DNA from: Thermoplasmatales archaeon SW_10_69_26
GTDB lineage: Archaea; Thermoplasmatota; SW-10-69-26
Direction of reading: 5' to 3'
DNA: 64,000 nucleotides
NCBI GenBank assembly: GCA_003009755.1
Contig: PXUB01000036.1
Span: 1 to 64,000 of the forward strand
Each line of letters starts with the position of its first letter. The first letter of the stretch is position 1. This document shows positions 11,692 to 48,225 of the stretch, one piece after another. The position numbers and the translations under genes were made by a program. Under the pieces are notes generated by a model. The model did no database searches. It had not been told where the DNA came from and worked only from the letters and a program-made list of their open reading frames with translations.

Positions 11692-11716
11692 GGCGGTGGC
11701 TGCGACCCCCCTCAGT

Positions 11717-12057
11717 CGGGTTGTCGACGGATGCTGTCCGAACCCGCCGGGTTCGGGCGTGCCTGAGATCGCCCGGGCGGGCGAGATCTCAGGGGGCGAC
11801 AACGGCCGAGCATCGGTCCGCCGTCTGGACCAGTCTCGGCTGCGTACGAATCTTCGATTCGTACAGCAAGATGGCCCGCCTCAGACCGGCGCACCAGAGC
11901 ATTTCCGGTCCCACGGTCTCCCCCTACGAGCGGTTGGCCAGGAGATGTTCACCAAATCGAGGGGGAGCGGTGTCCGCGACCCCCCTCACGGCGGGGCCGC
12001 CCGCAGGCGGCGATGATACGATCTTTGCAAGTTGTGAGGTTTCCAGGCGTTGTCGCC
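11717..12057 (+). ncRNA. Putative structured non-coding RNA (or ssDNA structure) inside the element
   Basis: Nested stems 11795-11804/12048-12057, 11897-11906/11941-11950, 11736-11745/11749-11758 and 11762-11770/11785-11793. The 77-nt core is 75/77 identical to copy 1; G-U pairs mostly favour this strand. Confidence 0.45.
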
Positions 12058-12559
12058 TTCGCCATCGACGTAGCCTGTGGCTACTCCTTCGTCTCGGCTC
12101 CGCGCTTTCACCGCCTGAGGCCGAGCGAGAGCTTAACCCAAGCACAGCCGGCAGTCTAGGGGGAGTTCTCGTGTGGCGGAGAAAGCGTATCCTGCTACGA
12201 TGACAACGACCTGGCAGGATGTACCGGCGGGCCTTCAAACCTAACCGGCTCCTCGAGTTCGGGATCCTGCAACGGATGGACCGAGGAGGACGGCGGCGAC
12301 GACCAGACCTTCTATCTCGCCTGCGAGGACCACGATAGCTCCACGATCCAAACCTCCAAGATGGGGAGTTCACCCAGGGATGGGCTCTACCTCACCGTCG
12401 AGGATGGCGTCCCTCAAGGGGAGGCATGCGAGGATGGCGTCTGCCACGCCGCACCGGCCGACCGCTCGACCGTCGGGGAGAAGCGCCACTGCTCCGTGAC
12501 GGGTGGCCACCTCCCATGGACTCGAGACTCGACCCGACCCCGGGTGTTACGCAGAGTCC

Positions 12560-22334: not shown

Positions 22335-24152
22335 ATGCTCGATGTCGTGGCGCGCGAGGGCCTGGCCCGCGCCGGCCGTTGGGACGCGGACGGCGAGGAC
22401 GTCCGCCTCCCCGCCGTGCTGCATCCCGACACCCAGCGCAGCCCGGCGCCGGACTTCGCCCAGCTGACGATCTCGACCGACCCGCTGGGCTCGGCCGCCA
22501 CGATCCGCTACGAGGGCACGCGCCTGACGCCCGAGGCCGACGAGACCGGCGAGGGCCTCTCGCTGCCGCGGGCCCTGATCTACCCGGGCGGCGTCGACGA
22601 ATCCCTGCAGAAGGCCGCCGACGAGCTGAACCGCGAGGAGGCCCCGATCCAGATCGTGCACGACCCGGCCGAGGTCGGACCCGTCACCGGCCTGCTCGTG
22701 CTGCCTCGCGCCCGCGAGGTCGCCGACGACGCCTGGCGGCTGGCCGGCTTCCTGACGACGGCCCGCCGACGCGCCGGCCCCAACGCCGTCATCTATGCCC
22801 CGGGCATCGGCCGCCCCGACCAGATCGCCCTGGCCGCTTACGCCGGCGTGGACGTCTTCGACGGGCTCGAGGCCTCGCTGGCCGCCCTCTCGGACACCTA
22901 TTCGCGCGTCGAGCGCCCCGAGGGCAGCGCGCCGCCAGAGCACCCGGCCTGCGCGTGTCCGGCCTGCCGGGACGCCGATCGGGAGGGCTGGACGCTGGAC
23001 CGACTGCGCGAGCACAACCGCCGCGAGCAACGCGCCGAAGTCCGCCGCGTGCGGCAAGCGATCGCCGACGGACGGCTGCGCGAGCTCGTCGAGCAGCGCG
23101 TCCGCGCCTCGCCGGCCCACCTGGCGACGCTGCGCCGCCTCGACGAGGATCACGGCGACCTGTACGAGCGGTACGCGCCGACCGTGCGCGAGGACGAGCT
23201 GCCCGTCGTGGGCCGCCGCTCGCTGTCCCGGCCCGAGGTCACCCGCTGGCTCGACCGCCTGGAGACCCGCTACCAGGCGCCCGAGAGCGCCCGCACGCTC
23301 GTCGCGTTGCCCTGCTCGGCGACCAAGCCCTACGGCAACTCGCCCACGCACCAGCGGATCCGGCCCGCGATCAAGCACAACGCCCGCGGCCGTGCTCACG
23401 TGGTCACTTTCACCTCGCCGTTGGGCGCGGTGCCCGAGGAGCTGGAGCTGATGTACCCGGCCCATCGCTACGAGGTGCCGGTGACCGGCGACTGGAACGA
23501 GCGGGAGGAGCAGGTCATCCGGCGCGCCTTCGAGGCGATCTGGAAGAACGGCGGCTACGACCAGGCGATCTTGCACGTCCCACCCGACGAGGCTGACATC
23601 GTCGAAGAGGCGCTGCCACGCGCCGAGCGCACCGTCGAACCCGGCGAGCGGCCGACCGACGACGAGGCGACCGACCGCCTGGGCGAGGCCGTGCGCGCCA
23701 GCGTCGGCGACGACCAGGCGATCGCCCGCGACGACATGTTCGCCGAGCACATGGACAACCGGATCGACTGGCAGTTCGGGCCCGGCGTGGCCGACGTGCT
23801 CGCCGAGGACACCTGGATCCGCGGCAAGTACCCCTGGCTGCGCCTGATGCACGGGGAGGACCAGCTGGCGATGATCAAGCCCGAGCGCGGCGCGCTCACC
23901 CTCACCGAGCCCGGCGGTCGCCGCCTGCACGAGGCGACGGACGCCTACACGATCGAGATCGACGACTTCCGACCGAAAGGCACCGTGTTCGCCGCCGGCG
24001 TCACGGGGGCCAGCGAGGCGATCCGCCCCGAGGACGAGGTCGTCTGCGTCCACGAGGGCGAGCTGCGCGCCGTCGGCCGCGCCACGGCGCCGGGCGAGAT
24101 CATGGCCGACATGGACGCCGGCGGTTGCGCCGAGGTGAGGCACCGTGGTTGA
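22335..24152 (+). CDS. arcS: Archaeosine synthase subunit alpha (ArcS/TgtA2)
   Basis: TGT-like N-terminus with CACPAC and HN, LRELVEQR, PCSATKPYGNSPTH, TSPLGAVPEELE, C-terminal PUA domain. Confidence 0.9.
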   Translation: MLDVVAREGLARAGRWDADGEDVRLPAVLHPDTQRSPAPDFAQLTISTDPLGSAATIRYEGTRLTPEADETGEGLSLPRALIYPGGVDESLQKAADELNREEAPIQIVHDPAEVGPVTGLLVLPRAREVADDAWRLAGFLTTARRRAGPNAVIYAPGIGRPDQIALAAYAGVDVFDGLEASLAALSDTYSRVERPEGSAPPEHPACACPACRDADREGWTLDRLREHNRREQRAEVRRVRQAIADGRLRELVEQRVRASPAHLATLRRLDEDHGDLYERYAPTVREDELPVVGRRSLSRPEVTRWLDRLETRYQAPESARTLVALPCSATKPYGNSPTHQRIRPAIKHNARGRAHVVTFTSPLGAVPEELELMYPAHRYEVPVTGDWNEREEQVIRRAFEAIWKNGGYDQAILHVPPDEADIVEEALPRAERTVEPGERPTDDEATDRLGEAVRASVGDDQAIARDDMFAEHMDNRIDWQFGPGVADVLAEDTWIRGKYPWLRLMHGEDQLAMIKPERGALTLTEPGGRRLHEATDAYTIEIDDFRPKGTVFAAGVTGASEAIRPEDEVVCVHEGELRAVGRATAPGEIMADMDAGGCAEVRHRG

Positions 24153-24424
24153 GCAACTGAACACCGCCGTTCGCCACCCCCGAATCGCAAGCTTGCGGGT
24201 GGGGTCGGCAGATCGGGTTCCCCGCAAGGGGCCCGAGCGACGGAAGGGTTGCCAGTCCCTTTCGAGCGACGGGCGAGGCAGCGCGGAGCCCGAGATGGCG
24301 AGCCAGCGGACGGCGGCCACAAGCGGCCGCTCGACCCTTCGAGTTCTCACCCCTTCCGGTCGCCGACCCATGCTTGCGACCCCGGAGGTCCGCCATGCTT
24401 GAACAGTTGAACACCGCCGTCCGC
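24132..24424 (+). other. Structured insert flanked by a recoded duplication of the arcS-raSEA junction
   Basis: 24132-24174 and 24385-24424 both encode EVRH..stop overlapping M(V/L)EQLNTAVR; nested stems and a GCAA tetraloop lie between them. Confidence 0.75.
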
Positions 24425-25501
24425 GACTCCCGCAAGCTCGATCAACGAGACGAGGACCCCTCCGAGCCGAGCCGGGTGTGGAGCGAGGAGGAGGTCATCG
24501 ACGGCGAGACGCACCAGGCCTTGACCGTGATCTTGCGGACCCGCGGCTGCACGTGGGCGATCAAGGGCGGGTGCTCGATGTGCGGGTACATCAACGACTC
24601 GTTCGTCAAGAACATCACCGCCGACCACCTCGTCGAGCAGTTCGAGACCGCGCTCGAGCGCTTCGACGATCACACCGTCATCAAGCTCTACACGAGCGGC
24701 TCCTTCCTCGACGACACCGAGGTCCACGCCGAAGCCCAGCGTCGGATCCTCGACCAGGTGCCCGACCCGGTCGTCCGCTTCCAGTCGGAGGCCCAGGCCC
24801 ACCACGTGACCGAGGACAAGCTCGAGGACCTGCGCCACCGGCTGCCCGACGGGTGCGAGTTCGCGCTCGGCATCGGGATGGAGGCCTCCTCCGACGACGT
24901 GCTGGAGTACAGCGTCAACAACGAGTTCGACGTCGCCGACTACGAGAACGCGGCTCGCGTGGCTGAGGACTACGACACGCTGCTGAAGTGCTACGTCCTC
25001 GTCAAGCCGCCGTTCCTGACCGAGCGGGAGGCGATCGAGGAGGCCGTCGTGACCGCCGAGCGCATCACCGGCACGCCCGCGCTGGAGGCGTTGTCCTTCA
25101 ACCCGATCAGCGTGCACAAGAACACGCTCGTCGAGCGCATGTGGGAGGACGGCGACTACTCGCCTCCCTGGCTTTGGAGCGTGGCCGAGGTCCTCACCCG
25201 CGTCGACGACATCGCCGACACGCAGGTCCACAGCGACGTCGTCGCCGGTGGCAAGCCGCGGGGCGCCCACAACTGCGGGGAGTGCGACGACGACGTGCTC
25301 CGCGCCATCGACGCCTACAAGAAGACCGGCGACCCGGCCGTCTTCGACCGCGTCGACTGCGAGTGCAAGGAGATCTGGCGCGAGCAGCTGGAGCTCGAGG
25401 GCCTGGGCCTGGCCGGCGGCTCGTTGGCCGAGCGCTTCCGGCAGGCCGCGGGCGACGTGGATGGCTCCCGTCGGGCCGCCGAGCAGTGGTACGAGGGCTA
25501 G
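24395..25501 (+). CDS. raSEA: Archaeosine biosynthesis radical SAM protein RaSEA
   Basis: LTVILRTRGCTWAIKGGCSMCGY, YTSGSFLD, KPPFLTE, YSPPWLWS, RGAHNCGECD; adjacent to arcS. Confidence 0.9.
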   Translation: MLEQLNTAVRDSRKLDQRDEDPSEPSRVWSEEEVIDGETHQALTVILRTRGCTWAIKGGCSMCGYINDSFVKNITADHLVEQFETALERFDDHTVIKLYTSGSFLDDTEVHAEAQRRILDQVPDPVVRFQSEAQAHHVTEDKLEDLRHRLPDGCEFALGIGMEASSDDVLEYSVNNEFDVADYENAARVAEDYDTLLKCYVLVKPPFLTEREAIEEAVVTAERITGTPALEALSFNPISVHKNTLVERMWEDGDYSPPWLWSVAEVLTRVDDIADTQVHSDVVAGGKPRGAHNCGECDDDVLRAIDAYKKTGDPAVFDRVDCECKEIWREQLELEGLGLAGGSLAERFRQAAGDVDGSRRAAEQWYEG

Positions 25502-48075: not shown

Positions 48076-48225
48076 ATAGACTGCCGGGCGTTATCTGCGT
48101 ACCTCTCGCCGCCCTCAGGAGGTCGAAAGCTAGGAGCCAAGACGACGGAAGGCCCGCAGGGCCTTTCGAGGTCGACGGCGACGACGCTTGGCGAGATGGT
48201 AGGCACATCGAGTCCGGCAGGCTAG
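48076..48225 (-). mobile_element. TIR-bounded element, copy 3 (150-bp internally deleted form)
   Basis: ATAGACTGCCGG... at 48076 and ...CCGGCAGGCTAG at 48225. 48076-48190 aligns with the reverse complement of 12045-12159; the CTAG contains the trm11 stop. Confidence 0.85.

Follow-up and report, generated by a model that had tools for sequence, protein, structure and literature searches.

A probable small insertion element on the overlapping arcS–raSEA junction of a thermoplasmatal archaeon

Introduction

The miniature transposable elements with inverted repeats known as MITEs, the IS200/IS605 elements and their relatives, casposons and integrative elements flanked by attachment (att) sites are the described systems closest to the subject of this study, an insert that separates two genes of archaeosine synthesis in Thermoplasmatales archaeon SW_10_69_26. 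The DNA analysed is a stretch of 64,000 nucleotides (contig PXUB01000036.1, positions 1 to 64,000), hereafter the window. All coordinates refer to it unless another contig is named; in our numbering it is contig C36 of genome G000 (2.8 Mb, assembly 95% complete). The insert lies between arcS, coding for the alpha subunit of archaeosine synthase, and raSEA, coding for the radical SAM enzyme for archaeosine formation. We conclude that a small, non-coding, non-autonomous structured repeat element probably inserted on an overlapping arcS-stop/raSEA-start junction, with duplication of that junction. Five elements in this genome, including this one, share the same architecture, and our data suggest that halophilic Thermoplasmatota harbour a family of small insertion elements that has not been described before. 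At the level of abstracts, the literature yielded no account of such elements for Thermoplasmatota or other archaea.

Like MITEs, the elements described here are small and non-coding and contain a multi-copy unit. They also have closing inverted repeats and direct repeats of the target, and the orthologous sites are empty for the elements of C36 and of another contig, C31. Unlike those of MITEs, their inverted-repeat ends are not conserved between copies, and no parent transposon was found. In addition, where MITEs have short duplications of fixed length, ours are long and range from 16 to at least 40 nt, and each element encloses an inverted copy of its target. The IS200/IS605 elements, as well as the repetitive extragenic palindromic sequences and bacterial interspersed mosaic elements (BIMEs) that go with Y1 (HUH) enzymes, also have hairpins conserved by structure, and the insert of C31 contains an inverted pair of units as found in BIMEs. 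The hairpin of IS608 is reported to have at its foot a short guide that pairs with the target and thereby selects the insertion site (PMC5934647, PMC3201880). A target-complementary segment is similarly found at the hairpin foot of the elements described here, with a length of 9-14 nt compared with 4 nt for the IS608 guide. However, IS200/IS605 elements make no target duplication and recognise a short fixed motif, whereas long repeats flank our five elements at four unrelated targets, and no enzyme of the Y1, TnpB or RAYT type was found (PF01797, PF07282).

The casposon of Aciduliprofundum boonei, which also belongs to Thermoplasmatota, is reported to generate a 15-bp duplication overlapping a tRNA-Pro gene and off-target duplications of 16 and 22 bp, and mini-casposons consisting of the ends alone can be integrated (PMC5137440). 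The long duplications and the tRNA 3' ends are features in common with our elements, whose 16-23-nt repeats (at tRNA-Gln, tRNA-Gly and rpa) fit loosely. In contrast with casposons, no Cas1 was found in G000, the duplication at arcS/raSEA is at least 40 nt long and the terminal repeats are not conserved. Finally, att-flanked or cis-mobilisable elements and tRNA-targeting integrative elements resemble ours in that the repeats hold the end of a gene or a tRNA, that elements accrete in tandem and that a replacement end is supplied. When compared with att-flanked elements, a core with diverged arms is seen at C36, and sharp, armless repeats at C31. Known att-flanked elements are kilobases long with one att site per family; the elements described here are ten-fold smaller, ~300 nt, and occupy several unrelated targets.

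Results

Duplication of the arcS–raSEA junction

The arcS gene is found on the + strand at 22335..24152, with a likely ATG start at 22335 and a TGA stop at 24150-24152, and raSEA follows on the + strand at 24395..25501. These gene identities had been proposed in an earlier, model-made reading of the DNA sequence without database searches (called here the original prediction), and profile searches supported them. ArcS matches the NCBIfam model NF040592 with 417.7 bits (E 7.7e-125, residues 4-604), slightly below the cut-off of 440, and harbours the Pfam domains DUF5591, TGT, TGT_C2 and PUA. RaSEA matches TIGR01210 with 309.9 bits, for a cut-off of 212. The two genes, whose GC content at codon position 3 is 0.94 (arcS) and 0.96 (raSEA), are separated from stop to start by ~242 non-coding bases.

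The junction is indeed present twice, as the original prediction had it. A gapless repeat, 24143-24182 and 24393-24432, is identical at 32 of 40 positions. With indels of 3 nt and 5 nt, the likeness extends over ~24132-24197 and 24386-24438, and a weaker resemblance of the second copy to the arcS tail may start as early as ~24357. In the first copy (DR1; 24132..24197, + strand), the functional end of arcS, with its last codons and its stop, is followed by the decaying, unused raSEA codons 1 to ~17, with the 5-nt indel. The second copy (DR2; 24386..24438, + strand) starts with an unused stretch that resembles the arcS tail and is now the source of a GGAGGT Shine-Dalgarno sequence upstream of the raSEA ATG (24395); it continues with this ATG and the functional first codons of raSEA.

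The differences between the two copies had been described as almost all synonymous, which is an overstatement: of 13 aligned codons in the raSEA frame, 4 are identical, and the 9 that differ comprise 5 synonymous and 4 non-synonymous changes (GTG/ATG start, V/L, H/D and P/S). Hand counts indicated that the divergence is uneven. To the left of a 20-nt core, 8 of 21 positions and a 3-nt indel differ, and to its right, 2 of 13 positions and a 5-nt indel, while the core itself has no difference (0/20) in the version of the strain found in contigs of the metagenomic runs X2 and X3 (see below). The left arm of copy 1 resembles the junction of the G004 type, with a GTG start, and that of copy 2 the junction of the G003/G005/G002 type, with an ATG start; G001 to G005 designate genomes of the same family. 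This uneven divergence fits both a junction copy carried by the element and a duplication on insertion.

Anatomy of the insert

An inverted-repeat search identified two arms that close the insert, at 24185..24209 on the left, including a palindrome at 24186-24197, and at 24362..24379 on the right (all features of the insert are given on the + strand). Within these limits, a repeat unit of ~110 nt is found at 24198..24305 in sense orientation relative to arcS and raSEA. It matches the covariance model of the family, called R1 and described below, with 70.3 bits (E 3e-12). At the foot of the unit hairpin is an internal inverted copy of the target, 24306..24316, whose 11 nt are the perfect complement of the target core at 24414-24424; in folding analyses, the target repeat and its inverted copy form a basal stem around the unit. 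The spacer that follows (24317..24361) occurs only once in the genome according to nhmmer, and it varies between strains.

The three nested stems that had been proposed are complementary (24185-24192/24372-24379, 24202-24209/24362-24369 and 24241-24248/24351-24358), and a GCAA-capped hairpin can be drawn at 24213-24236. The fold of the whole insert is unexceptional for its composition (z = -1.82 for the + strand and -0.25 for the - strand), and both the third stem and the GCAA hairpin differ from the conserved family pairing. In the family structure supported by covariation, CGGAAGGG pairs locally with 24256-24263 and not with 24351-24358. A search of Rfam gave no match inside the insert at E <= 10, with one tRNA only for the whole window, and no match for the copies of the unit on C31, C43 and G002:C21.

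A lineage-specific insertion

We compared the arcS–raSEA junctions of relatives, as had been suggested. The insert is absent from all five same-family genomes, G001-G005. The raSEA start overlaps the arcS stop in four of the five, and in G002, the arcS tail is lengthened by 18 nt in frame with the same raSEA overlap kept, without the insert. At 11 more distant loci of the class, the gaps between arcS and raSEA range from 16 to 316 nt (that of a twelfth locus, L027, was not measurable), and the repeat unit was not found in the larger ones (L022, 241 nt; L019, 316 nt; L016, 148 nt), with best R1 scores <8 bits. Because arcS and raSEA overlap or are joined in the five same-family genomes, positions 24153-24394 of the window represent a lineage-specific insertion.

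The insert is also real DNA, as determined with public halite-metagenome contigs from four runs compared over 23600-25000. The likely source run, X1, has one contig of 16,974 nt that contains the stretch. In X2, which comes from another study, a 1,201-nt contig covers 23600-24647 with 18 differences and 0 gaps, and in X3, a 388-nt contig covers 24118-24505. The original prediction had envisaged an assembly chimera of two strains. The two junction copies do differ in the way alleles would, but the probability of a chimera is negligible because single contigs from three runs in two studies, thus including contigs from a study other than that of the source run, span the insert without gaps.

These contigs also revealed strain variation. 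A further X3 contig corresponds to a diverged variant, in which 24213-24311 are kept with 12 differences and 3 gapped bases and 69 other letters replace 24312-24383. Single-nucleotide polymorphisms (SNPs) between strains at 24171 and 24175 are located in the unused half of DR1, and the X2/X3 versions make DR1 and DR2 identical over 20 nt. These two changes, special to this genome, fit with neutral decay. The present copy has a G.G mismatch at one position of the family structure, and another SNP, 24277 G>C, brings the G-C pair back. A scan of the metagenome contigs with RaSEA returned 10 loci, all with <=41% identity, and hence no close relatives with which to date the insertion.

We also considered that the insert might be a decayed tandem duplication, and rejected this. 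Beyond the junction repeat, its interior is unlike 400 nt of either gene: the score against arcS is 11, for a shuffle mean of 13.1, and the match to raSEA is limited to the junction repeat.

A multi-copy family of structured hairpin repeats

A genome-wide search of the insert showed that its core belongs to a multi-copy family and that the remainder is unique. By direct sequence comparison, the core has a single other match in the genome, on C31, with 77% identity over 67 nt and an inner hairpin with compensatory changes on both sides; two more copies are found in G002. The R1 covariance model was built from four copies and contains 30 pairs, 10 of them with compensatory change. A search of 21 genomes of the class with R1 gave 25 matches in G000, 10 in G002, 3 in G020, 2 in G003 and single weak ones elsewhere. 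With the reverse-complement module, nhmmer gave 62 matches at E < 0.02 in G000, on both strands, and none of the 62 overlaps any of the 57 tRNA genes identified with ARAGORN. The two modules are one ~110-nt unit in its two orientations.

In an alignment of 22 distinct copies, 94% of cells pair, compared with 34-43% when the partners are slid, and 0 of 500 shuffles reach the observed values. Changes on both sides were found for 25 of the 30 pairs. That one G.U pair is retained in 18 of the 22 copies speaks for a single folded strand, namely the mRNA-sense strand in the case of the arcS–raSEA insert. The neighbouring upstream gene has the same orientation as the unit in 34 cases and the opposite one in 20, based on crude gene calls and on copies that are not independent of each other. 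The simple motif GAGCGACG..GAGCGACG was tried as a marker of the family and abandoned, as its matches in GC-rich relatives are mostly due to chance; a pattern scan of genome contigs found the two G002 copies only. In the window, another copy of the unit is present at 48108-48208 (+ strand; R1 39 bits, E 1e-5), and it coincides with an nhmmer module match at 48125-48191 (- strand).

Five repeat-flanked elements with a common architecture

The left and right flanks of each G000 unit were locally aligned to detect direct repeats. Five elements stand out with flank scores of 16-68.5, for a background of <=15 among the G000 units tested. They are located on C36, C31, C42 (two elements) and C30. For 16 further units from G000 and relatives, the flank score was never >13. 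The five elements measure 250-340 nt, with repeat periods of 250-254 (arcS/raSEA), 287 (rpa), 341 and 339 (tRNA-Gln) and 278 (tRNA-Gly). All have the same order of components: a direct repeat, one or more unit hairpins, an inverted copy of the element's own target that lies at the hairpin foot or close to it, a spacer and the second direct repeat. The direct repeats are 16 nt long on C31, ~18 nt on C42, ~23 nt on C30 and at least 40 nt on C36. The inverted target copies are of 11 (arcS/raSEA), 12, 10, 9 and 14 nt, and an inverted match as long occurs in 6, 1, 5, 22 and 0 of 1000 dinucleotide shuffles, respectively. The two C42 elements are related to each other and were counted as one case. 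The architecture of direct repeats and inverted target copy thus recurs at four independent targets.

The element of C31 (locus L002, G000:C31:28279-31344) is inserted at an rpa junction. It occupies C31 29624-29894, and its 271 nt include two units that are inverted relative to each other. On both sides it is bordered by a perfect 16-nt copy of the junction; the two copies are 287 nt apart, with no homology beyond them, and contain the Shine-Dalgarno sequence, the stop codon of the upstream gene and the first ATG base of the downstream one. In G005 and G002, the rpa-like genes overlap (TGATG/ATGA) and the site is empty. The upstream rpa gene on C31 contains a run of N.

Two related elements of ~340 nt follow a tRNA-Gln(TTG) gene in tandem (L131, G000:C42:19300-20800), over ~C42 19563-20316. 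Each of them contains an inverted copy of the tRNA end and terminates in a repeat of the final ~18 nt of the tRNA. In G005 too, this tRNA-Gln is followed by a related element that contains a unit (L137 1638-1701). No clean empty site was found for this target: in the relatives, the tRNA and the downstream gene are on different contigs or, in G005, the related element follows. The last element, of ~280 nt, is associated with tRNA-Gly(GCC) (L132, G000:C30:48700-49800) and is found at ~C30 48964-49337. Its flanking repeat of ~23 nt corresponds to the tRNA end and trailer, and the tRNA 3' end recurs inside the element as a perfect inverted copy of 14 nt.

Candidate enzymes

Profile searches of G000 for enzymes that might move such elements gave no match for PF01867 (Cas1), none for PF01797 (Y1) at E <= 0.1 and none for PF07282 (TnpB). 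Cas1 (PF01867) was detected in 4 of the 21 class genomes at E <= 0.001, over the curated cut-off in G004, G012 and G008 and below it in G001; none of the four carries the unit. Genes for three tyrosine recombinases and one serine resolvase were found in G000, as were those for IS110-type transposases, the latter at the ends of two contigs. The two genes for IS110-family (DEDD) transposases, G000:C3:88341-88769 and G000:C2:62978-63406 (L127 and L128), are 85% identical over 1.4 kb.

Reading frames across the insert

As had been predicted, 24145..24402 (+ strand) is open for 85 codons. This frame bridges the arcS stop to the raSEA start, and it is a candidate relay frame for ribosomes. Its GTG start overlaps the arcS stop, and its TGA stop lies three bases beyond the raSEA ATG, in overlap with codons 2-3, so that the ancestral overlap is copied at both ends. 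The GC content of its interior is 0.69/0.70/0.76 by codon position, compared with 0.94-0.96 at position 3 of the flanking genes, and the frame has no match in Pfam or NCBIfam. Among six strain SNPs in the frame, four are first-position, residue-changing substitutions, and none creates a stop. That the frame might be a real small protein gene is scarcely credible. It has a start codon with a Shine-Dalgarno-like GAGGTG upstream, but its GC profile is flat, it matches no family, most of its SNPs (4/6) change residues, and such a frame stays open in 57% of shuffled sequences.

The rpa insert also has an open frame, of 96 codons (C31 29620-29910), that links the upstream stop to the downstream start. 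In dinucleotide shuffles, one given frame stays open in 57% of cases for arcS–raSEA and in 24% for rpa, and the repeat periods of 254 and 287 are both equal to 2 modulo 3. The joint chance of both relay frames is ~0.015, (1/3 x 0.57) x (1/3 x 0.24), a post hoc value calculated by hand. In the diverged variant of X3, the differences in length all look like multiples of three (60, 1+2, and 72 versus 69), with the sequence between the flanks of the 60-nt skip lacking. A genome-wide scan for bridging frames was too noisy: it gave 30 candidates, many of them gene-like in composition, and missed the C31 case.

No bacterial promoter or terminator was found in 23900-24700 with a scan that is blind to archaeal signals, and the insert contains no oligo-T tract. 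Because there is neither an oligo-T tract nor a bacterial-type terminator in it, the insert is likely to be co-transcribed with arcS and raSEA. Translation of raSEA would then begin at its own ATG, with a Shine-Dalgarno sequence of its own. In Haloferax volcanii and Escherichia coli, ~20 nt between genes is reported to almost abolish termination-reinitiation coupling (PMC10666635), and ArcS is described as active only in complex with RaSEA (PMC11298593). The original prediction proposed that ribosome coupling is kept across the insert. The bridging frames here and at rpa are in line with this, and a relay of ribosomes from arcS to raSEA through the 85-codon frame is possible at best.

Discussion

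The proposal of an inserted element is upheld by the absence of the insert from the five family genomes, by the membership of its core in a multi-copy structured family and by the existence of four similar elements elsewhere in the genome. We consider it probable that this is a small, non-autonomous repeat element that duplicated its target. According to this scenario, an element built around one hairpin unit would have landed on the overlapping arcS-stop/raSEA-start junction, with the duplication of at least 40, probably ~65, junction bases. The left copy would have retained the 3' end and stop of arcS and the right copy the Shine-Dalgarno sequence, ATG and 5' end of raSEA, and the unused halves of both copies would have been left to decay. 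The elements are presumably mobile DNA, or once were, with an enzyme acting in trans to move them. The long duplication would restore both functional ends, which may explain why insertions are seen at constrained targets, namely coupled junctions and tRNA 3' ends. The perfect, sharp 16-mer at the rpa site favours such a target duplication on insertion.

Several observations weigh against this scenario. No Cas1, RVT_1, TnpB zinc ribbon or Y1 transposase is encoded in the 95%-complete assembly, although metagenome-assembled genomes often miss mobile genes. The genes for tyrosine and serine recombinases and for IS110 transposases are neither adjacent to the elements nor similar to them in sequence. 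The closing inverted repeats differ between the copies of C36, C31 and G002:C21, so there is no conserved end to which a transposase would bind, and no single classical transposase generates duplications as variable in length as these (16, ~18, ~23 and at least 40 nt). Outside the unit, the arcS–raSEA insert matches nothing else in the genome with nhmmer, and it thus has no source copy there. For most of the ~60 copies of the unit, no flanking repeat could be detected. Neither an empty site nor a circular form was found in contigs of the four metagenomic runs, but contigs drop rare variants. Lastly, the covariation alignment was fitted to the model, which biases it towards the structure.

The insert might instead be an integrative mini-element with an att site, which carried a diverged junction copy from a related strain and integrated by site-specific or Campbell-type recombination within the short core of identity, so that each flank is part host and part element; a later recombination between lineages could likewise have joined an element-borne copy to that of the host. 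This would account for the very uneven divergence of the copies and for arms that resemble different junction types (G004 versus G003/G005/G002). Moreover, the 3' ends of tRNA-Gln, with its two elements in tandem, and of tRNA-Gly are classic integrase targets, and the genome has three tyrosine recombinase genes. Nevertheless, we regard this origin as rather unlikely: the sharp, perfect 16-mer at rpa is more similar to a target duplication than to an att arm, a single attP does not explain one shared unit at four different targets with matching repeats, no integrase gene is found beside any element, and the left-arm change of copy 2 can also be read as an adaptation of the ribosome-binding site (GTG to ATG, GGAGGT and a spacing shorter by 3 nt). 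Quasi-palindrome template switching is known to yield inverted copies of flanking sequence beside a hairpin. One can therefore also imagine a repair scar, in which a template switch during replication or break repair copied a hairpin unit located elsewhere and resumed upstream of its point of departure, with fold-back synthesis making the inverted copies. The inverted flank copies beside the hairpin match the expected products, and the variable duplication lengths, the absence of conserved ends and the failure to find a transposase also agree with this idea. It is however improbable, as accidents of repair do not readily account for the same ordered architecture at four independent targets or for the parts of the insert outside the unit, which have no source in the genome. 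The tandem stacking at one tRNA end and the G005 element after the same tRNA-Gln further suggest a target preference.

The last alternative, that the insert is a cis-regulatory RNA such as a riboswitch or attenuator for raSEA or archaeosine synthesis, was part of the original prediction. The unit is in sense orientation within the arcS–raSEA transcript and folds stably, and two strain lineages or more have retained the insert. Yet a regulatory role in archaeosine synthesis has become very improbable: the insert is missing from all five family relatives, the other class spacers examined are devoid of the unit, the spacer of the insert varies between strains, Rfam has no match, and the unit recurs ~60 times, in either orientation, over dozens of unrelated loci.

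To return to the inserted element as the favoured explanation, the inverted copy of the target is its most unusual feature, and, no enzyme having been found, it fits no known mechanism. A speculative and, on present evidence, unlikely extension is that of a guide-bearing hairpin element, in which the 9-14-nt target-complementary segment at the foot steers integration as RNA or single-stranded DNA. The long duplication would rebuild both gene ends, and at coupled junctions, only insertions with an open relay frame would survive. If true, this would represent a programmable, gene-sparing insertion mechanism in archaea, and if the inverted target copy proves to be a guide, a new principle of target selection for small archaeal elements.

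Junctions in which stop and start overlap are considered all but untouchable. Here, two coupled junctions, those of arcS–raSEA and rpa, are split by ~250-290 bases with all genes whole, owing to the duplication of the junction. They show one route by which mobile DNA might enter essential, tightly packed operons. In addition, the bridging frames offer a direct test of whether a ribosome relay can replace gene overlap.

Other spacers and repeats

Some arcS–raSEA loci of the class have features of their own. In the 316-nt spacer of L019 (G011, from a different lineage), raSEA is preceded by a TATA-like stretch rich in A/T. This spacer also contains a 12-codon open reading frame (ORF) rich in Met, Val and Trp, with four consecutive Trp codons, that resembles a leader peptide. 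The 241-nt spacer of L022 (G020, from another family) is GC-rich with many hairpins, and R1 does not match it. It has a Shine-Dalgarno-like G-run after the arcS stop and another before the raSEA ATG, with an inverted copy after the first, and it may represent an independent, analogous insertion. The C-terminal tail of ArcS also varies in length, with an extension of ~30 residues rich in Ala, Gly and Lys in L020 (G014) and one of 6 residues in L011 (G002); the stop/start overlap or near-overlap with raSEA is retained in both G014 and G002.

Finally, the window contains a composite non-coding repeat of ~470 bp at 11693-12165, with several hairpin modules and one copy of the unit at 12040-12112. 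The ORFs that flank it have no informative Pfam family. Full or partial copies of this composite repeat, with 75-100% identity, are found on most contigs, many of them at contig ends, and it probably breaks the assembly.

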